A stretch of 14,816 nt of DNA from an uncultured Deferribacteres bacterium. GTDB lineage: Bacteria; Zhuqueibacterota; Zhuqueibacteria; Zhuqueibacterales; Geothermadaptataceae. Under the pieces are notes generated by a model. It was not told the DNA's origin. It did not search any database and saw only the letters and a list, made by a program, of their open reading frames with translations. Where the stretch lies: the NCBI GenBank assembly GCA_964014485.1, contig CAXHAT010000196.1, positions 1 through 14,816 on the forward strand. Reading direction: 5' to 3'. The translations under genes were made by a program, and so were the position numbers. Position 1 is the first letter of the stretch. Every line of letters starts with the position of its first letter. Shown here one piece after another: positions 1 to 14,816 of the stretch.

Positions 1-3000
1 TGCTGGCCGACTTTGATCGTGTAGAGATAAAGTCCGCTGGCCACGCGAGCGCCGGAGTGGTCGCGGGCGTCCCAGGTCACTTTGTGCGCGCCGGGGGCGT
101 AATCACCGAAAGCCAGCGTGCGCACGAGCTGTCCCGCGCTGCTGTAAATATTCAGCGAAACATGCCCGGCTTCCGCCAAATCAAATTGAATCGTCGTGGT
201 CGGGTTGAAAGGATTCGGATAATTCTGATGCAGCGCAAACGCCGTCGGCAACGCTTGTATCTCTGACCGTTCATCAGCTTCAACAAAAGCTTTTGGACTG
301 CCGCAACGATTTAGCGCATCACAATAGCTTTCCCACGCCTTGCTGTAGTCCTTGATACCGTCACCGTGATAGGTCCCGCTGACTTCTGTGTCGCCGTCAG
401 CGAGATCCTTGTCGCCGTCGTCAATGTCGTCCTGCATTTTGCCGCTTGGATTCGGATCGCAGACAAAGACGTCGTTGCGTTTTTGGGTGGCAATATCGCG
501 GGCGAGACTGGAGAGCAGTACCGCCGCCGGGTCCGTGTCCGCGCCTTTGTGGCGCGCTTTTTCCAAATCGTCAGCGGCGTCGCGAATGAGATCAAAGAAG
601 TCTCCGGTGTTTCCGGCCGCATCAGCGCTCAGGGCCTGGTTCAATGCGTCTTTTGCACTCTGCAATGCGCTTAGTGCGTCTGAGGGCGTGTTCGGATCGT
701 TGATCAAAGCCTGCACCTGCGCACAAGCCGTATTGATCACATCCGCAGGCGATTGTACGGTGATCGTGACTTGATCCGTGGCTTGGCAGCCATTGTCCGA
801 AGTGACGGTTACCGTGTAAGTCGTCGTCGTGCCCGGCGTAGCCATTGGATTGGCGGCGGCCGGATCGTCCAAATCGCCGGAAGGCGTCCAGGAAATAGTG
901 AGCGCTCCGGGGCCGGAAGCCGTTGGCGCGCCGCCCAGCTGCACGGTATTTCCGGCATAGATAGTCTGATCTGCGCCAGCGTCCGCAGTCGGATTGGCGT
1001 TGATCGTTAAGTCTCCCGCACCCGTACCGGCACAGCCGTGGACGTCGGTGACCGTGACGTCATAAGTTCCTGCAACGGTTGGATTGATCGATTGCGTACT
1101 TGCCGTAAAACCGCCCGGCCCCATCCAGGCGTGAGTGAAGGGCGCCGCGCCGCCTGAAACATTTGCCGTCATCGTTGCGGTTTGGCCTGAGCAGACCGAA
1201 ACGTCAGCCACAGTGACCACCGGGTTGGCATTAATCGTCAAAACGCCGGAGTCCGTGCCGGTGCAGCCGTGATTATCGGTCACTGTGACGCTGTAAGTCC
1301 CAGCCGTCGTTGGATTGATCGATTGCGAGGTTGATGTAAAACCGCCCGGCCCGGTCCAGGCGTAAGTGAAGGGCGCTGCACCGCCGGAAACGGTGGCGGA
1401 CATCGTTGCGCCGCCGCCCGCGCAGGTTGCAGCATCAACCACGGTGACGGTCGGATTGGCGTTGACGCTCAAGTTTCCAGAATCCGTGCCGGTACAGCCG
1501 TGATTGTCGGTCACAATAACACTGTAGGCGCCGGCTGCTGTTGGATTGATCGATTGTGACGTTGCCGTAAAACCGCCCGGCCCCGTCCAGGCGTAGGTAA
1601 AGGGCGCCGCCCCGCCGGACACGTTCGCCGTCATGCTTGCGGTTTGGCCAGCACAGACTGAAACATCGGCAACCGTCACCGAAGGGGCTGATCGGACCGT
1701 GACAACGACTTGATCCGTATCCGTCCCGCCGTTGCCGTCGTCCACGGTTAAATCAATCGTGTGCGCGCCGACGTTGAGCGAAACCGTTGGGGTGACGCCC
1801 GTTCCAAGCGTGGTCGCGCCTTCTTTCCAGGTATAGGTCAGGGGATTTGAATCGGGATCGCTTGAGCCGGAGCCGTCGAGAGTGACGTTGGCCGAGCCTG
1901 TGGAAGTACAAATGCTCTGATCCGCTCCGGCGTGGGCGGTTGGGGCTTGATTGGTCGACGCTTCAAAGTAATAGGCGGTTTCGGCAAATTCCGTCCCGAT
2001 CATGGCATTGTCGCCGTCCAACGAAATAGCTTGGCCAAACCCGTCATTGAAATCGACGTCGCTGGAAGTGAATTTATCTTTTTCGCTCCATGTCCCGTCC
2101 CCGTTTCTTTCAAAAAGGTAGACGAGTCCTTTGGCGTCGTACTGGTCGAGGAAGCCTTTCTCTGGAGCGCCAATCAGAGCACGCTCTCCGCTAACAGCAA
2201 CGACTCGTCCGAAAAAATCAGCACCTAGTCTATCACTGTGCTGGAGTGTCGCGGTTTCGCTCCATGTTCCATTTGCATCTCGTTCAAAGACGTAAGCCGT
2301 GCCAACTTGAAACTTGGCGCCGACATTTGTATTCTGCGCTCCGATAACGGCTCGATCTCCGTCTAATGAGACAGAGACGCCGAACCTGGGTTCTGGAGTT
2401 TGGCTACTCACCTGGATTCTCGCCGTCTCGCTCCAGGTTCCACCAGCGCCTCGCTCGAAAATGTAGGCGGCGCCTACCGCATTGTTTTCACTCCAGGCGC
2501 CGATAAGGGCTCGTTTCCCGCTCATTGAAATGTCATTACCAAAATTGGCAAGGGCCTGGTTGGTGCTGGGTTGAATTTTTGCCACTTGCCCCCACGTTCC
2601 AGCGGCGTTGCGCTCGAAAACATAGACAGCTCCGGCATAGGCGCCGCCGGTTGCCTCATCAGCGGCTCCGACCATTGCACAGTTTCCATCAATTGCGACC
2701 ACCCCGCCAAAAGAGTCTTCTACTTCTTTATCACTGGCTTCGAGTTTGGCGACTTCACTCCAGGTTCCGCCGGCACTCCGTTCAAAAATATAGGCGGCGC
2801 CGGTAAAATTACCTTTCCGATAAGCGCCAACAATCGCGTAATCGCCGCTAATCGCCACCGATGATCCAAAGTGATCAAAAATCACAGGATCGCTTTGGGT
2901 CAGGTTTGCAACTTCAATCCACGCTCCGCTTGCATTTTGCTCAAAAATGTACGCCCCGCCCGAACTCTGCGCAACGCCGTTTTTGAGCCCGGCGCCGAAT

Positions 3001-3182
3001 ATCGCGCGATTCCCGTCGAGGGCAAGCGAAGATCCGAATCTCGGATCGGACCCTCCAGTGCCTGCATCACTTGCAGTGAGTTTGGCCACTTCCGTCAATT
3101 GTGCTTGAGAAACACTTGCCAACAAGCAAAGATTGAGCAGTATTGTCACTGCGCCTGCAATGGCTTTTTGAACCTTTTTCAT
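1..3182 (-). CDS. Large secreted/surface protein, 3'-truncated at the window edge: signal peptide, 7 FG-GAP blades, PKD/Ig domains, three SprB-like repeats, a helical domain and a T9SS type A sorting/FlgD-Ig-like C-terminal domain
   Basis: Manually translated; absent from the ORF track because no stop lies in the window. ATG at 3182 with an AAGGAGA RBS (3193-3187). Signal peptide MKKVQKAIAGAVTILLNLCLLASVSQA|Q. Seven FG-x-x-(V/L/I)-(A/S)-(L/I/M/V)-(D/S)-G repeats, most followed by G-x-(A/V)-Y-x-F-E. PKD-like NQAPTAHAGADQ...LDGSGSSDPD...LTYTW. C-terminus LPTAFALHQNYPNPFNPTTTIQFDL...VTWDARDHSGARVASGLYLYTIKVG. The frame is the same at both ends (1060 full codons). Confidence 0.93.
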   Translation of the reverse strand, partial: MKKVQKAIAGAVTILLNLCLLASVSQAQLTEVAKLTASDAGTGGSDPRFGSSLALDGNRAIFGAGLKNGVAQSSGGAYIFEQNASGAWIEVANLTQSDPVIFDHFGSSVAISGDYAIVGAYRKGNFTGAAYIFERSAGGTWSEVAKLEASDKEVEDSFGGVVAIDGNCAMVGAADEATGGAYAGAVYVFERNAAGTWGQVAKIQPSTNQALANFGNDISMSGKRALIGAWSENNAVGAAYIFERGAGGTWSETARIQVSSQTPEPRFGVSVSLDGDRAVIGAQNTNVGAKFQVGTAYVFERDANGTWSETATLQHSDRLGADFFGRVVAVSGERALIGAPEKGFLDQYDAKGLVYLFERNGDGTWSEKDKFTSSDVDFNDGFGQAISLDGDNAMIGTEFAETAYYFEASTNQAPTAHAGADQSICTSTGSANVTLDGSGSSDPDSNPLTYTWKEGATTLGTGVTPTVSLNVGAHTIDLTVDDGNGGTDTDQVVVTVRSAPSVTVADVSVCAGQTASMTANVSGGAAPFTYAWTGPGGFTATSQSINPTAAGAYSVIVTDNHGCTGTDSGNLSVNANPTVTVVDAATCAGGGATMSATVSGGAAPFTYAWTGPGGFTSTSQSINPTTAGTYSVTVTDNHGCTGTDSGVLTINANPVVTVADVSVCSGQTATMTANVSGGAAPFTHAWMGPGGFTASTQSINPTVAGTYDVTVTDVHGCAGTGAGDLTINANPTADAGADQTIYAGNTVQLGGAPTASGPGALTISWTPSGDLDDPAAANPMATPGTTTTYTVTVTSDNGCQATDQVTITVQSPADVINTACAQVQALINDPNTPSDALSALQSAKDALNQALSADAAGNTGDFFDLIRDAADDLEKARHKGADTDPAAVLLSSLARDIATQKRNDVFVCDPNPSGKMQDDIDDGDKDLADGDTEVSGTYHGDGIKDYSKAWESYCDALNRCGSPKAFVEADERSEIQALPTAFALHQNYPNPFNPTTTIQFDLAEAGHVSLNIYSSAGQLVRTLAFGDYAPGAHKVTWDARDHSGARVASGLYLYTIKVGQ
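995..1690 (-). repeat. Three tandem 231-bp (77-aa) SprB/Ig-like coding repeats
   Basis: AAAACCGCCCGGCCC recurs with CCGCCCGG at 1111, 1342 and 1573 (period 231). Each unit encodes V-x-D-x-x-x-C-x-G-x-x-A-x-M-x-A-x-VSGGAAPFT(Y/H)AWxGPGGFT...SINPT...Y-x-V-x-VTD-x-HGC. Confidence 0.9.
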
Positions 3183-3244
3183 ACGGTCTCCTTGTTTTAG
3201 TGTCTGTTGAATTATTTTCTGCCATTTTTTGGCAAAACTTTCCA

Positions 3245-3399
3245 AACGCAGAGATGCAAAGGTCGCTGAGCTACGCGGAGTTTTTATAACACAAATGTTG
3301 GAAACCCTATTTATGAATTTGCATCGCCGAGAACTTTCCAAAATGAACTCAAAATTCAATTTTCTCTGCGCTTCTCAGCGACCTTTGCGTCTCTGCGTT
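3245..3399. repeat. REP/REPIN-like inverted repeat pair (36-bp arms, 83-bp spacer)
   Basis: 3245-3280 AACGCAGAGATGCAAAGGTCGCTGAGCTACGCGGAG versus the reverse complement of 3364-3399, AACGCAGAGACGCAAAGGTCGCTGAGAAGCGCAGAG: 31/36 identical. Confidence 0.85.
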
Positions 3400-3607
3400 A
3401 AGTCATGAGATTGAATGATCGCTTCTGATTGGTTCCGGCTTGTCCGGGTTGGGATGAATGGTGAAACGGCAATCGTGAATCGGTATTTTTTCCATTCTTG
3501 ATTGCTAACAGAAAAACGAATGAACACGGTCAGAAGGAGCGCGGATTGAGGGTGGTCGCAAAATATGAGAATGCACGGTTTTCGTCATTGCCGTCAAACA
3601 CTTCGCG

Positions 3608-4450
3608 CTTGGTCGGAAACGATATTAGGTGCATCGTTCATGCTTTTGAACAACCTGCACTGCAATTGTATTTTGAAGGAAAGCTGCGTTCAGGAATGCA
3701 GCGGCTTTTCCTTCTCCCTGCTGACCGAGTGGATGGGGCTGCGTTTTTACGCAATAAACCATCCGTGCTCACGTGCGGAAAAGCGCCTGAGCACATCGAT
3801 CATTCCGCCCTTTTCGCGTTCAAAGGGAGAAAGCATAGCCGTTTTTGAAGAAGACGGGCGCGCTCAAATTCCAGGCGTTGAAGAAATTTGCCCCTCGACC
3901 GCACAAAGCCGAGAATTTCCTCGCACAAAAAGAATTGTTTCAGCGTTTACCCTCGCCCGTCTACTTGGCGGCGAGCCTCTGCTCGAAATGTTAAAATGTT
4001 GGTGTAGAATCCGTTCTGGAAGGCGATGCAAGCCTGCCTGTTTGCATCGTTTCGCACGGGGAGTATTGTTTTACCTCTCCGCCTGCGCGACTTTGGTACG
4101 TTTTATAACCTGGTCATGGTTTTCGTTTTAAGTTTACGTCCTGTTTTTATTTTTGCGGAAAGTTTTAAAGGGTGTTCGGAGTACGGTAGTTCTCAACGAT
4201 TTGTCCTTACCAAACTTTGTTCCTTCTTCCCTTTTTTGAAGAAGCATCGGGAGGCGAGTGAAGAGCGAGAAGGGTAAACGCCCCGCGCTTCTACGCGAAC
4301 CTCCCGGCGCCTTTAAATTTTTTAAAAATAGGATCACGGACGACCGCATCTTGCCGCCGCCCGCAATCCTGCATCCAGGGTTTTTTCTGGAGTATCAATG
4401 TCGCGTCTCGAAAGGGTCTGTTTTCTGTGGGAATAAGATAATCGGCAAGA
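3608..4450 (+). ncRNA. Candidate large structured non-coding RNA (unclassified)
   Basis: At least 15 adjacent or nested helices, including long-range closing stems 3608-16/3721-29, 4139-49/4323-33, 4248-54/4300-06 and 4349-56/4443-50. Internal non-Watson-Crick pairs are repeatedly G-U on the + strand. No credible protein is encoded here. Confidence 0.55.
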
Positions 4451-4467
4451 GGAAGAAATGCTCCCGC

Positions 4468-4541
4468 ATATTGGCCATTCTCTAACGCAAAATGGCCATT
4501 ATAGCTGTAAAACGGCCATTTTTAGCCGTAAATCAGCCATC
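4468..4541. promoter_or_regulatory. Four direct repeats at a 20-21 bp period; probable transcription-factor binding array
   Basis: (G/A)GCCAT cores at 4473, 4494, 4514 and 4535 (spacing 21, 20, 21). Units: ATATTGGCCATTCTCTAACGC / AAAATGGCCATTATAGCTGT / AAAACGGCCATTTTTAGCCGT / AAATCAGCCATC. Confidence 0.6.
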
Positions 4542-4595
4542 GTTGGAAGTTTGAATTTCAGTTACGAATGCAGGATAGTAGCTGGACGGAAAGAG

Positions 4596-7500
4596 CTATT
4601 TGCTCTTGATTTGTAGCGTAATAGCCGAAGGCGTTTTGCCGAATTCTTCTTTGAACACTTTTGAGAAAGCGGAGACGTTGTTATACCCGACTTGATAAGC
4701 GATTTCCGTGATCGTCCCCGCTTCCTTTTCGATAAGCTGTTTGGCGCGCTGTAAACGCATGGTGCGAATAAACCGGGCGGGCGAATGATCCGTCAGCGCC
4801 TTGATTTTGCGCTGTAATTGCCTTTGGCTCATGCCAACCTTTTTGCATAAATCAACAACCCCAAAATCTTCTTCAGCCAGGTTTTCTTCAATCGCGGCCT
4901 TTACATTTTCAAAAAAATCTTCATCCAGCGACGAGACCTGGACGGCGGACGGCGAAGTCGAGAGCGTTTTACTGAACTGTTCGCGCAATTTGCGCCGCAT
5001 CTCGATCAACTTCTCGACACGAAGATTGAGTTCTTTTGTACTGAACGGCTTAATCAGATACGCGTCAACGCCGGTTTTTAAGCCTTCCAGTTTTTCTTCT
5101 TTTGCCGCTTTCGCCGTGACCATGATGATCGGGATATGACTCGTCACTTTGTCGGTTCTCAGTCTGCGCGATAATTCATAACCGTCAATTTTCGGCATCA
5201 TGACGTCGGTGATGATGAGATCAGGAATGAACTCCCTGGCTTTCTCAAATCCTTCTTCGCCGTTTTTAGCTTCAATCACGCTGTACCGCTCTTCTAAGTG
5301 CTGACGAATGTAGGCGCGCACGTCAGCGTTGTCTTCCACCACAAGCACGAACTCGCTGGAAGTCGGAGAATGGAGATTGAAGGACGGATGAACGACATTG
5401 TTGCCGGACGGCTCCAACTGGGGCGTGATTCCGGCGTGGAAAATTTCATCGTTGTCCTTTGCTCTTCTTGCTCCGGTTTCCGTCCCCCGTTCTCCGGGCT
5501 CCGCGACTAATGGGAGCGTAACAAAAAACGCTGTGCCAAAGCCCTCGTCGCTTTCCACTGAAATCTGGCCGCCGTGCAGTTCGACGAGTTCTTTGGTTAG
5601 CGCGAGACCTATGCCCGTGCCTTCGTGTTCGCGCGTTTGTGAGCCGTCGACTTGGTAGAAACGATCGAAAATGTGCGCCAAGCGATCTTTCGGAATGCCC
5701 AGCCCGCTGTCGCGGACAGTGATGAGTAGAAAATGATTGGTATTTGGTTGGTTGTCTTGCTTTTGATCACTATTTACAGCCAACTGGATGCTAATTCTTC
5801 CCCCTTCCAACGTGAATTTTATGGCGTTTGAGAGCAGGTTGTGCATGATCTGCTCGATTTTTTCAGCTTCAAAATTGATGAAGATTGCGTCGTGCTCACA
5901 AGAGAAATGCAATTTGATCTTCTTCGTGTGAGCAAGCGATTCGAACGAGTAAGTTAGATTTTTAATCAGTGGAAGAATGTCTCCGGGCTGAGGGTGCAAT
6001 TTTAGCGCTCCGGATTCCAACTTGGACAGGTCGAGCAATTGATTGATAAGCCGCAGCAGTTGTTTCCCGTTTCTGGCGGCCATGTCTAGTTTTTCCTTCA
6101 TCGCTTGCGTAGGCGAGTCGGGCAACACGCTGCCGATCTGCCCCAGAATCAACGTGAGCGGCGTACGGAATTCATGCGAAATATTAGCAAAAAAGCGAGA
6201 TTTGGTCAGATCGAGTTCTTTGAGTTTTTGTGCCTGAATTCGCAGCTGATCTCTTTGCGCTTTTACGTCGCGAGTTCTTTGCCCAACCAGTGACTCGAGT
6301 TCCTGCGTGCGTTTTTGAAGCCGTCTGACTCGAAAACGCACAAGCCCCATAACGCTGGAGCTTGCTATAAATAAATAAAGCAAAAAGGCCCACCAGGTTC
6401 GATACCACGGCGGGAGCACGACGAATGAGAATGCCGCTTCTTTGCCGAGATGACCAAAAAGGTTTTTTGCACGTACGCGAAATCGATAATCGCCTTCAGG
6501 CAGGTTGGTATATTCTTTTTGTGCGGATTTTGTCCAGCCGGACCAGGTTTTATCAAATCCTTCCAAAAAGGTCTGAAATTCGGTTCGTTCCGGGACCTCA
6601 AAAGTTGTTGCGGCGAAACCAAAACGCATGGTGTTGAACGAGTAGGACAAACGCGGATTCTTGAGCTTTGAATTGACCTTTTCATTAGAAGGCGAAAAAT
6701 TCAAAGCAACAGAGTCCCCGCCGGCGGAAACAGCACGAATTAGCGTTTGAAAGTCGACCTCGTAGTTTTGATCGGCGGTTGGGTCGAAGCGGAAGAGCCC
6801 GTCTGAGCCGCCGAACCAGGCCACGCCGGATTTTTCGCCGTAAACCGTTGTGATGTTATAGTCTTTGAGCGGCAGAAAAGGTTTTTCAATTAAGGTTTCT
6901 CTATTGTTGGCGCCAATGTTTAGGAGCTTCAGATTTCCGCCGTTTTTTAGCCAAATATGCGCTGAACTGCTTGCCAGAACGCGCGAGCCGCTTGGAAGTT
7001 TTTCGCTATATCCCGGTATAGTCGTTTCAAAAAAACGATTTTGATTTTCATCAAATCTATGAAACGCTCTTTTGCATCGAAAATACGTCACTCCATTAAA
7101 AGTGAATACGTCGCGAATATGCTCTCCCAGCCTCTGGCCTTTGCCAAATTCGTCGATGATTGTCTTAAATCCGGGCGCTTGAGATTGCTGCGAATTCGGC
7201 GAATAACGAGTTCTAAAAAGACGAGAACCCGAGTGCAAAGTCCAAAGTTCGCCGGGCCGAGTTTCTACAATTTTCGAAATCGTCGCTTTTAAGTCGAGCG
7301 CTTTCCCTAATTCTTGCCAAGAGCCTGTTGCCTGGTCTCTCCGAAGAATACTGACGCCATTGATTAATCCTGCAAAGAGTAAGGCAGAGTCGGCTTTGGA
7401 TTGATGAATTTTGTAAGTATAAAAGTCCCGCCTTACTGATTCTCTTACGATGCCAAATCCATCCTTTTTGATCTCAAAAACCCCGTCAGCGCCGGCGGCT

Positions 7501-8738
7501 AACAGGCGAGACTTATCTGGATCGCTTCCAACGGAAAAAATTGATAAATCCCAAAAAACGGAATTTATGCCGGGGACTTTGCGAAAGACGCCGCTTGTCT
7601 CGTCCAGAAAATAGACGCCGGTTCGTGTTGCAATAAACAACTGATTCTTGTAGCGTAAAATATCGTGAACATTGCCTTCGAAGCCTTCATATCGTGTAAT
7701 TGGAGACGCGATCGAGACGCGGCTCAAGCCGTTGTCTAACGCCAGCCAAAGGCCGCCTTCTCGATCCTGGAACGCCGACCAAGCAGTATTGTTTTGCAAT
7801 CCTGAGTTTTTGTTGAAAAGCTGTACCAAAGTTCCTTGCTGATCAACGATCAACGCACCGCCTAACCTCGTGGTTATCACAAATTGGTCATTTGCTAATC
7901 TCAGTTTTTGGTTATAGACGTGGTTCCTTTTTAAATAATCATTGATCTCATGTGACGAGCCTATAGATTTAGCGCCGTTCAGAACAAAACGCTTGTCGTT
8001 GATGGAATAGGAAAATATGCCATTGCCATAAGGCGTTAAATGTTTTGCTTGCTCGCTCTGAATTTTACTGTCAATTTTGACTGGGACTAACGTATCACCC
8101 AAGACCTTTACTAATCCCAAACGACGTGCTTTGAGATAAAGCGCGCCATCGAGAAAAAGACCGTCGAAAAACTTATGTTCAGGAAATACCTTTCGTACGG
8201 TATCGTTCGCCCAATAGAAGAGGTGTTCATTAGGCATAAAATAGACGCCGTCTTTTGCATCAACAATATGCCAAACGTGCGTAAAATCATGGTAACGTCG
8301 ATTTAATTTTGACAGAAGAGATTGAAAACGGAGCTTGCCAACGGAATCGGGCGTTAGAAAGCCGAAATCGCCTCGCGCTCCCACATAGATGCGATTGTCG
8401 GCGTCTGCTGATAATGAATAAACGGGGGGCTCTTCGCCGCCGACAATTGTGCGCCAGGAAACTCCGTCGTATTCAAGAACGCCCGATTGATTTGCGGCGT
8501 AAATAAGGCCGTTTTGATCCTGAATCACTTCCCAGTTTTGCGGCGCGGCCCCGTAATCTCTCGGCTTAAAATTTTGGATATAAAATTCTCCGTAACGTTT
8601 CGCCGCCGGAGCTTGCGCCAAAACGCCAACAGGAGAAATATCAAGAAGGAGTCCGGTGAGAAGAAGAAGGTAAAGGCGTGTTTCAAAAAAAACGCGCCCA
8701 CCCCCTATATTTGATGATGGATGCATTCGTAATTTCAT
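4596..8738 (-). CDS. Hybrid two-component sensor histidine kinase/response regulator (Reg_prop propeller, Y_Y_Y, TM, HisKA, HATPase, REC, AraC HTH)
   Basis: YTNLPEGDYRFRVRAKN (Y_Y_Y); PPWYRTWWA followed by a TM helix; FFANISHEFRTPLTLI (H-box); NLLSNAIKFT, DSGLGI and GTGIGLAL (ATPase boxes); VVEDN...DLIITDVMMP...KPF (REC); ITEIAYQVGYNNVSAFSKVFKEEFG (AraC). The track's GTG start at 8783 lies inside a MITE terminus, so ATG 8738 (or 8726) is more likely. Confidence 0.95.
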   Translation of the reverse strand: MKLRMHPSSNIGGGRVFFETRLYLLLLTGLLLDISPVGVLAQAPAAKRYGEFYIQNFKPRDYGAAPQNWEVIQDQNGLIYAANQSGVLEYDGVSWRTIVGGEEPPVYSLSADADNRIYVGARGDFGFLTPDSVGKLRFQSLLSKLNRRYHDFTHVWHIVDAKDGVYFMPNEHLFYWANDTVRKVFPEHKFFDGLFLDGALYLKARRLGLVKVLGDTLVPVKIDSKIQSEQAKHLTPYGNGIFSYSINDKRFVLNGAKSIGSSHEINDYLKRNHVYNQKLRLANDQFVITTRLGGALIVDQQGTLVQLFNKNSGLQNNTAWSAFQDREGGLWLALDNGLSRVSIASPITRYEGFEGNVHDILRYKNQLFIATRTGVYFLDETSGVFRKVPGINSVFWDLSIFSVGSDPDKSRLLAAGADGVFEIKKDGFGIVRESVRRDFYTYKIHQSKADSALLFAGLINGVSILRRDQATGSWQELGKALDLKATISKIVETRPGELWTLHSGSRLFRTRYSPNSQQSQAPGFKTIIDEFGKGQRLGEHIRDVFTFNGVTYFRCKRAFHRFDENQNRFFETTIPGYSEKLPSGSRVLASSSAHIWLKNGGNLKLLNIGANNRETLIEKPFLPLKDYNITTVYGEKSGVAWFGGSDGLFRFDPTADQNYEVDFQTLIRAVSAGGDSVALNFSPSNEKVNSKLKNPRLSYSFNTMRFGFAATTFEVPERTEFQTFLEGFDKTWSGWTKSAQKEYTNLPEGDYRFRVRAKNLFGHLGKEAAFSFVVLPPWYRTWWAFLLYLFIASSSVMGLVRFRVRRLQKRTQELESLVGQRTRDVKAQRDQLRIQAQKLKELDLTKSRFFANISHEFRTPLTLILGQIGSVLPDSPTQAMKEKLDMAARNGKQLLRLINQLLDLSKLESGALKLHPQPGDILPLIKNLTYSFESLAHTKKIKLHFSCEHDAIFINFEAEKIEQIMHNLLSNAIKFTLEGGRISIQLAVNSDQKQDNQPNTNHFLLITVRDSGLGIPKDRLAHIFDRFYQVDGSQTREHEGTGIGLALTKELVELHGGQISVESDEGFGTAFFVTLPLVAEPGERGTETGARRAKDNDEIFHAGITPQLEPSGNNVVHPSFNLHSPTSSEFVLVVEDNADVRAYIRQHLEERYSVIEAKNGEEGFEKAREFIPDLIITDVMMPKIDGYELSRRLRTDKVTSHIPIIMVTAKAAKEEKLEGLKTGVDAYLIKPFSTKELNLRVEKLIEMRRKLREQFSKTLSTSPSAVQVSSLDEDFFENVKAAIEENLAEEDFGVVDLCKKVGMSQRQLQRKIKALTDHSPARFIRTMRLQRAKQLIEKEAGTITEIAYQVGYNNVSAFSKVFKEEFGKTPSAITLQIKSK

Positions 8739-8768
8739 TGTCAGCTCGCTCAGATTCGGCGCCGCAAT

Positions 8769-8971
8769 TTCACTACCTGACACTTTTTATAGCAACTTTT
8801 CGAGCGTCTCAAAAAGTCCAAAATTGTCATGCTGTGAGCATCTTTTTAGACCTAATCCTTGAATTCTTGGGGAAAATCTATGCCGGACGCTAACAAAGAT
8901 TTTTACAGAATGACAATTCGAGGCCTTCTCGCCATGCCTAAGGCAATTTGTAAAAAGTGTCAGGTAGAGAG
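8769..8971. mobile_element. MITE copy 1 (203 bp) with terminal inverted repeats and a 9-bp TSD
   Basis: TIR CTACCTGACACTTTTT (8773-8788) is the perfect reverse complement of AAAAAGTGTCAGGTAG (8952-8967). The element is flanked by the direct repeat CGCCGCAAT at 8760-8768 and 8972-8980. Confidence 0.88.
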
Positions 8972-14767: not shown

Positions 14768-14816
14768 CTGTCTCTTATACACATCTCCGAGCCCACGAGA
14801 CTCCATTGCCTCTCGT
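14768..14816 (+). other. Illumina Nextera adapter read-through (artefact)
   Basis: CTGTCTCTTATACACATCT (Tn5 mosaic end) + CCGAGCCCACGAGAC + index-like TCCATTGCC + TCTCGT. Confidence 0.98.

Follow-up and report, generated by a model that had tools for sequence, protein, structure and literature searches.

A predicted hybrid two-component system operator and promoter, with a putative long folded leader, upstream of a secreted adhesin-like gene in an uncultured Deferribacteres bacterium

The DNA analysed here, referred to as the window, is a whole contig of 14,816 nt from an uncultured Deferribacteres bacterium (CAXHAT010000196.1 of assembly GCA_964014485.1). Between two of its minus-strand genes lies a 1.4-kb spacer (3186-4595), which is probably (we would put the chance at roughly 0.6) the control region of the minus-strand gene downstream of it, a gene for an FG-GAP/PKD adhesin-like protein secreted by the type IX secretion system (T9SS); the spacer would comprise an operator, a promoter and a long folded minus-strand leader. 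In the mechanism we propose, a hybrid two-component system (HTCS) regulator of AraC type, most likely the one encoded directly upstream, would bind four tandem 21-bp half-sites (4466-4545), which abut a weak candidate -35-like hexamer (4458-4463), a 17-nt spacer and a putative TATCTT -10 element (4435-4440). Since these predicted operator and promoter elements lie on the minus strand, transcription is expected to begin near 4428 and proceed leftwards. An earlier reading, made from the letters only and called here the sequence-only reading, had assigned positions 3608-4450 to a stand-alone plus-strand RNA of about 850 nt. We suggest that most of this region belongs to a 5′ leader of ~1.24 kb, rich in hairpins, and makes up its first ~820 nt; the conserved modules of this leader (the 4021-4052 hairpin, the 3765-3827 hairpins, and the 3713/3824 and 4249/4307 helices) probably tune mRNA elongation, stability or translation.

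The spacer is taken as 3186-4595 because the left gene starts at ATG 3185; a signal peptide follows this codon, and the translation beginning MKKVQKAIAGAV.. is preceded by an in-frame upstream stretch. Paralogs, partial copies and loci bearing the promoter module are named by contig (C403, C449, C231, C304, C4, C73, C58, C318 and C290), and all belong to the same genome. The features of the window are as follows.

4466..4545, minus strand: predicted operator; four direct-repeat half-sites at 20-22 bp spacing, the core being GGCC at 4473, 4494 and 4514 but AGCC at 4536.
4458..4463, minus strand: -35-like hexamer GAGCAT, 9 nt from the proximal half-site core.
4435..4440, minus strand: -10-like hexamer TATCTT, with the predicted start near 4428.
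3186..4428, minus strand: putative 5′ leader of ~1.24 kb, non-coding and folded, which contains the bulk of the region of the sequence-only reading.
4249..4307, minus strand: helix CGGGAGG/CCTCCCG around a variable insert, retained in C449, where a U-G pair has become G-C and the stem is longer.
4007..4055, strand not assigned: motif GAATCCNTTCT..GGAAGG, then a hairpin of 11-13 bp with a 6-nt loop (4021-4052), followed on the plus strand by T3-T6.
3765..3830, strand not assigned: hairpin GTGCTCA..TGAGCAC (3765-3794) and hairpin CCCTTT..AAAGGG (3808-3827), conserved in C403.
3672..3730, strand not assigned: conserved block with the hairpin 3675-3714, common to the window and C403 only.
4596..8783, minus strand: HTCS gene, 1395 aa, with the Pfam domains Reg_prop, Y_Y_Y, HisKA, HATPase_c, Response_reg and HTH_18/HTH_AraC.
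3..3185, minus strand: target gene; its product is a secreted protein of FG-GAP/PKD/SprB-repeat type that carries a T9SS C-terminal sorting domain (Pfam).

The half-site array lies ~50 nt from the stop codon of the HTCS gene, and its centres fall near -46, -67, -87 and -109 relative to the predicted start. Tandem Repeats Finder reports a period of 21 (2.5 copies, 81% matches) at 4489-4540. A triple GGCCAW pattern matched once in the window versus none in 200 shuffles, and occurs at three loci genome-wide. Half-sites are conserved in three to four copies with variable spacers between them, and the 21-bp step recurs in C449, C231, C4, C318 and C58. A study of Bacteroides describes the predicted HTCS motifs as directly repeated, tandem sites being 21 bp apart on average (Ravcheev et al. 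2013, PMC3878776). Judged by the same tandem spacing of ~21 bp, 4466-4545 is a predicted HTCS operator in the putative promoter of a gene adjoining an AraC-type HTCS gene.

Aligning seven loci on the minus strand revealed one order of elements: half-sites at 21-bp steps, ~9 nt, RAGC(AT), exactly 17 nt, and a -10-like hexamer. RAGC occupies the -35 position in six of the seven loci (RAGCAT in four) and always stands 17 nt upstream of the -10-like hexamer, which reads TATCTT in six loci and TATATT in one; the 17-nt spacer is fixed in 7/7. The RAGC.. element is unlike TTGACA, and a scan with the sigma-70 consensus did not call this minus-strand pair; the plus strand of the same bases has no TAnnnT -10. 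C290, with no TATCTT box, was kept out of the alignment, and C18 and C7, also lacking the box, were set aside. At six of the seven loci (window, C403, C304, C4, C73 and C58) the downstream gene carries a signal peptide or a T9SS tail, C318 meeting the contig end; upstream of the module there is usually the 3′ end of a gene. The domains of the targets include FG-GAP/PKD, PKD, YadA-head, PAD_porph with a T9SS tail, and beta-helix, and one target is a small secreted protein outside any Pfam family. The context across loci is thus consistent with a minus-strand promoter, and the right closing arm of the RNA proposed by the sequence-only reading (4443-4450) lies in the predicted promoter spacer.

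An HTCS gene stands beside four of the seven modules (window, C231, C318 and C58), and the half-site core differs among these HTCS-adjacent loci (GGCCRAT, GTCCGC, GTCCTA). Among 11 matches to the HTCS C-terminus on 10 contigs, a GGCC-type array follows the stop codon in the window and C231 only; the arrays of C318 and C58 were found later, by other routes. When 120 other genomes of the class were searched for the operator pattern, five matched, about the rate of a control pattern read backwards. One of these matches (G056, contig C140, 320-600) turned out to be a long tandem array of a 21-nt unit in more than 12 copies with AAYGGCCGAT-like cores and not the promoter module; the other four genomes were judged from the matched strings alone. 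As a separate observation, three paralogous genes stand in tandem on the minus strand of C4 (3512-10197), each coding for ~650-700 aa with a signal peptide; the middle gene has YadA-head repeats and an S74 chaperone domain, and the promoter module recurs ~100 nt upstream of it.

The non-coding DNA of the spacer is conserved within the genome in one full-length paralog (C403 + C449) and in partial copies at C231/C304 and C58. By nhmmer, window positions 3570-4173 align with C403 2591-3154 (E 3e-39) and 4153-4540 with C449 64-461 (E 1.8e-12); by blastn, 3672-3856 and C403 2701-2888 are 74.1% identical over 193 nt. C403 and C449 are probably one locus, since they overlap by 15 nt and, when joined, yield a perfect inverted repeat of 27 nt around a 17-nt loop, which an imperfect second inverted pair flanks. 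This joint locus stands in the same orientation upstream of a paralogous PKD gene. With the right part as profile, a third copy was retrieved, divided between C231 and C304 (E 1.7e-9 and 1.9e-4), and the three-copy profile added C4 (E 3.4e-4), C318 (3.5e-3) and C73 (7.7e-3), while C58 bears diverged modules of the left part. Further nhmmer matches in C8, C392, C105 and C136 lay inside long open reading frames (ORFs) and were dropped. The gene bodies of the window and the paralog loci share 65-70% DNA identity, and at four-fold degenerate sites the paralogous genes agree in 69 of 180 cases (38%). The non-coding blocks reach 72-74% identity to C403 by blastn, more than neutral change would leave, and are therefore either constrained or were homogenised later.

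The window, C403 and C58 have leader modules in common. In the whole genome there are exactly three occurrences of the motif GAATCCNTTCT..GGAAGG, at window 4007, C403 2986 and C58 6243, and the hairpin matching 4021-4052 forms in every copy, each time with a different stem sequence. This comes from single-sequence folds, which were used instead of a three-sequence MAFFT/alifold run whose alignment was not structural and muddled the pair counts. Hairpins 3765-3794 and 3808-3827 are recognisable in C58, where the second loop measures 13 nt versus 8, and AGGGAGA (3824-3830) can also pair with TCTCCCT (3713-3719). The block around the 4249/4307 helix (4225-4313) gives an alifold z of -4.09 on the plus and -4.63 on the minus strand. 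Of the helices listed in the sequence-only reading, the paralog keeps only some and lacks the outer ones, 3608/3721 and 4349/4443. Judging from positions, the leaders of other loci would measure ~1.4 kb at C403/C449, ~1.05 kb at C58, ~0.6 kb at C73, at least 0.48 kb at C231/C304 and ~100 nt only at C4.

Two further observations concern the leaders. On the minus strand of the window, 4333-4372 can form a 15-bp hairpin followed by a U/A-rich run (4332-4317), ~55-110 nt past the predicted start, which looks like an attenuator; neither C449 nor C304 retains it. Tandem 8-mer repeats CAACAATC, GGAATAAT and GGAGTGAT lie in or beside leaders (end of C304, C278 from 45, C73 ~31400-31430), one of them at a contig break.

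The sequence-only reading was borne out in part. All 18 helices that it named are present, none displaced by more than 1-2 bases, and its 843-nt region folds better than chance: the plus strand has a minimum free energy (MFE) of -288 kcal/mol versus -260.75 +/- 7.43 in 20 dinucleotide shuffles (z -3.67). The minus strand reaches -275.1 versus -240.75 +/- 8.31, likewise in 20 dinucleotide shuffles (z -4.13), so that no asymmetry in folding favours plus, an outcome that the sequence-only reading had itself named as telling against it. A bias to G-U pairs had been the argument for a plus-strand molecule. The plus-strand MFE structure has 35 G-U among 283 pairs, compared with 36.8 +/- 3.2 in 25 shuffles, and the minus-strand one 21 of 256, compared with 25.6 +/- 5.1 in 25 shuffles; the argument fails because the plus strand is richer in T than in A (T 244, A 188; G 210, C 201), and the apparent bias is compositional. 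The structure is real, and specificity to the plus strand is absent.

Shorter stretches were folded as single sequences against 50-100 shuffles. The minus strand did better in all four of the 345-407-nt segments tested, and the promoter strand had the more negative shuffle z in 7/8 segments listed here, a tally in which the segments are partly homologous and hence not independent.

Window 3672-4060: -2.55 on the opposite strand, -3.35 on the promoter strand.
C403 2701-3045: -3.38 opposite, -4.72 promoter.
C58 5890-6296: -3.12 opposite, -5.85 promoter.
Window 4061-4430: -1.92 opposite, -4.53 promoter.
C73 leader: -1.57 opposite, -3.61 promoter.
C304, part of the leader: -0.31 opposite, -2.44 promoter.
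Window 3186-3570: -4.49 opposite, -5.41 promoter.
C290: -2.44 opposite, -0.78 promoter.

In 150-nt windows the minus strand is better at 4236-4435. Consensus folding (alifold against column shuffles) gave z of -3.68 on the plus and -4.06 on the minus strand for block 3665-3860, -0.79 and -1.06 for block 3960-4165, and -2.70 and -4.96 for block 4225-4560. Asymmetry, where it is present after control for composition, favours the minus strand.

The region matches no known RNA family and has the marks of non-coding DNA. Covariance models of Rfam 15 (including OLE, ROOL, GOLLD, riboswitches, RNase P, tmRNA and 6S) gave no gathering-threshold match anywhere in the window, in agreement with the sequence-only reading, which had recognised no signature of RNase P, tmRNA, SRP, 6S, riboswitches or group I/II introns; the best sub-threshold scores are 14 and 11.8 bits (E-values 2 and 4.6). 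Pfam assigned no family to any of the five intergenic ORFs, the ORF 3565-4131 included. A tblastn search with six-frame pieces of at least 20 aa matched only a multi-copy repeat at 3360-3459 and never the paralog. Mismatches to the paralog are spread 41/51/41 over codon positions (p = 0.47), which means no codon periodicity, and deletions of 1, 1, 1, 25, 22, 5, 1, 4, 4 and 12 nt in the paralog break the frame. ORF 3565-4131 on the plus strand, with 188 codons (193 from stop to stop), is long for non-coding DNA of like composition (rough p ~0.02). It was rejected as a protein gene on the grounds of no Pfam or tblastn match (large protein databases lay outside the search), frame-breaking indels and no codon bias, and no coding signal is conserved in it. 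By its sequence, the region is intergenic and non-coding, between an HTCS regulator and its likely target gene, as the sequence-only reading had held.

Outside the genome no relative of the region was recovered. Related DNA was found by blastn in 0/40 relatives, and a covariance model of 3672-3836 (R1) had no match in 28 other genomes of the order; the homologues recovered were 2-3 paralogs inside the genome. A 20-mer of the best-conserved block was met at two metagenome and nine genome loci, none of which (0/11) showed further similarity, and these were dismissed as chance matches. The sequencing runs listed as containing the stretch itself are three DNA runs of a single study, with no RNA run among them.

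Several points weigh against the control region as we read it. We infer HTCS binding, the start site, the strand, read-through into the gene and the role of the leader from sequence; the geometry of the motifs, their recurrence at seven loci, the conservation of non-coding DNA and the compensation in the hairpin stems are direct observations. C58 has no -35-like hexamer and two half-sites only. The 150-nt windows at 3586-3835 and 3936-4135 score better on the plus strand, and so does the C290 leader on the strand opposite to the promoter, although C290, having no TATCTT box, is a candidate family member only. Block 3960-4165 is conserved in sequence, yet shows no consensus-fold signal. In the three copies the 4021-4052 hairpin is followed on the plus strand by T3, T4 and T6 and so resembles a plus-strand intrinsic terminator. 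Conservation with C403 ends at ~3570-3600, ~385 nt before the ATG in both loci, and a short repeat with ~50 matches in the genome has been inserted there; for a leader acting on the ribosome-binding site, the non-conserved last ~385 nt with a repeat before the ATG would be odd. To this must be added the partial homology of the folded segments, and that all comparisons are of 2-3 paralogs in one genome.

Some of these points would suit other explanations. The end of conservation in both loci and the multi-copy repeat between the conserved unit and the gene are what one might expect if the HTCS-type promoter made a stand-alone structured minus-strand RNA of ~0.85 kb (~4428 to ~3570) and the adhesin gene had a proximal promoter of its own; the conserved unit is, moreover, discrete and strongly folded on the minus strand. 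However, neither a minus-strand terminator near 3570 nor a proximal promoter-like site in 3186-3570 was found, and at C4 the module stands ~100 nt from a start codon, so that it would be able to drive a protein gene directly. We consider such an RNA unlikely. The terminator-like hairpin raises a different question, namely whether the left part (~3672-4055) encodes a plus-strand RNA, ending at 4021-4052 and its T tract, that would run antisense to the leader like an enlarged DonS-type RNA. The T tract is found in 3/3 copies with differing stems, the sole sigma-70-like site (TCGAAA-16-TAGAAT, 3983-4010, plus strand) is conserved in C403, and the 150-nt windows favour plus at 3586-3835. But this site lies ~10 nt before the hairpin and would be unable to drive the blocks upstream of it, a single promoter-like match is fewer than the 1.6 expected by chance, and no plus-strand promoter was identified further upstream; the G-U content is explained by composition, and the whole-unit z-scores favour minus in all three copies (the first three segments listed above). 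An antisense RNA of this kind is therefore improbable to a similar degree.

It is also conceivable, but again not likely, that the conserved blocks matter as DNA only, being protein-binding sites or remnants of segmental duplication or gene conversion in which the hairpins have no RNA role. Palindromes do score on both strands, the loci are paralogous over the gene bodies too, and no conservation was seen among the 40 relatives and the 28 genomes of the order. Against this, stems change while the hairpin stays and loops go from 8 to 13 nt between conserved arms, which fits folding better than a fixed site for a dimer, and the blocks are more alike than the four-fold sites, though recent gene conversion could mimic this difference. 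The single stand-alone plus-strand RNA of the OLE/ROOL/GOLLD size class is the least probable of all, and we give it very little credence. It can draw on the folding of the plus strand beyond shuffles and on a region that is non-coding and without Rfam match; yet the minus strand folds equally well or better, G-U pairs are at shuffle level, and no homolog was met in the 40 relatives or the 28 genomes of the order. Nor do its limits (3608-4450) coincide with the core shared by the copies. The outer helices are lacking in the paralog, where only some of the others survive. Nor is the region a single domain-tiled unit: 4430-4450, including one side of the right closing helix, belongs to the predicted minus-strand promoter. 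A free-standing giant plus-strand RNA is not supported. The sequence-only reading had also thought of a structured mobile element. As a MITE-like (miniature inverted-repeat transposable) element the region was rejected: of the 24 inverted pairs listed, none encloses 3570-4545 as a terminal repeat (no search for target duplications was made), and the two full and two partial copies, diverged, have a single orientation relative to the secreted-protein gene upstream of which they lie.

Some observations concern the surroundings of the spacer. A 47-nt string is common to window 14768-14814 and C403 3244-3290 (97.9% identical), at the ends of both contigs; the end of C403 is adapter-like. We recognise the string as a Nextera-type adapter of transposase libraries, which, if correct, would make it a contaminant of the assembly at contig ends. 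The window copy lacks a palindromic insert (C403 ~3200-3256, C449 1-45) that is the probable cause of the assembly break between these two contigs. A short repeat family is found at window 3245-3270 and 3360-3459, 60-270 nt upstream of the ATG of the adhesin gene, and 50/52 blastn matches of the spacer within the genome land on 3360-3459; many copies consist of a ~90-nt arm and an inverted 40-nt arm 100-200 nt apart and have a MITE-like or REP-like (repetitive extragenic palindromic) look.

If the control-region reading is right, the genome offers a clear example, repeated at several of its loci, of an HTCS-type operator and promoter of fixed geometry (half-sites, 9 nt, -35-like hexamer, 17 nt, TATCTT) outside Bacteroides. 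The module would be wired to surface and secreted T9SS proteins instead of sugar-uptake loci and followed by unusually long conserved leaders, and it yields DNA fragments for binding tests together with a small predicted regulon of an uncultured organism. A bolder form of the claim, which we advance only tentatively and think more doubtful than the reading as a whole, is that the promoter, once activated by the HTCS, gives rise to a conserved and heavily folded RNA of 0.85-1.2 kb from the minus strand, as leader or stand-alone, and that this is an undescribed kind of large cis-regulatory RNA gating T9SS adhesin-like genes in the uncultured lineage. A leader acting as RNA would be a new lineage-specific regulatory RNA, a claim that rests on 2-3 paralogs. 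The plus-strand candidate should be struck from the list of giant non-coding RNA candidates.

Long structured 5′ leaders that modulate elongation or translation form a general class. The hairpin-rich leader proposed here resembles them in lying between a predicted regulated promoter and a gene and in having modules conserved among paralogous loci; it differs in that no known leader family matches and no minus-strand terminator of attenuator type is conserved. With OLE, ROOL and GOLLD the region shares size class, intergenic location and many helices, but it has no Rfam match, occurs in one genome only, lacks a strand-specific signal and would in part be promoter DNA. The DonS-family RNAs of Bacteroides polysaccharide utilization loci (PULs) are described as cis-antisense RNAs of 78-128 nt tied to susC homologs (Ryan et al. 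2020, PMC7366714). The likeness would be in a non-coding transcript from the spacer between regulator and target, antisense or divergent to the 5′ region of the target, and the plus-strand hairpin with its T tract (4021-4055) might mark the end of an RNA of this sort; the unit here would, by contrast, be at least 350 nt long, a promoter for it was not found, and the fold statistics favour the other strand.

The closest likeness is to the HTCS operators of Bacteroides, though they differ in several respects. The host is not a Bacteroides, the targets are T9SS-tailed or adhesin-like and not susC/susD PULs, the predicted operator sits just past the stop codon of the regulator's own gene, and leaders of ~0.5-1.4 kb would follow the module in most loci. 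These operators share with the window an AraC-type HTCS, direct-repeat half-sites ~21 bp apart, and a place in the promoter of the neighbouring gene. The promoter bound by BT4124 is reported to have two full sites of two half-sites each (PMC13292587), and the four half-sites of the window match this. The best reading of the spacer is accordingly a known regulatory design that appears here in a varied form, in an unusual lineage and with unusual targets.

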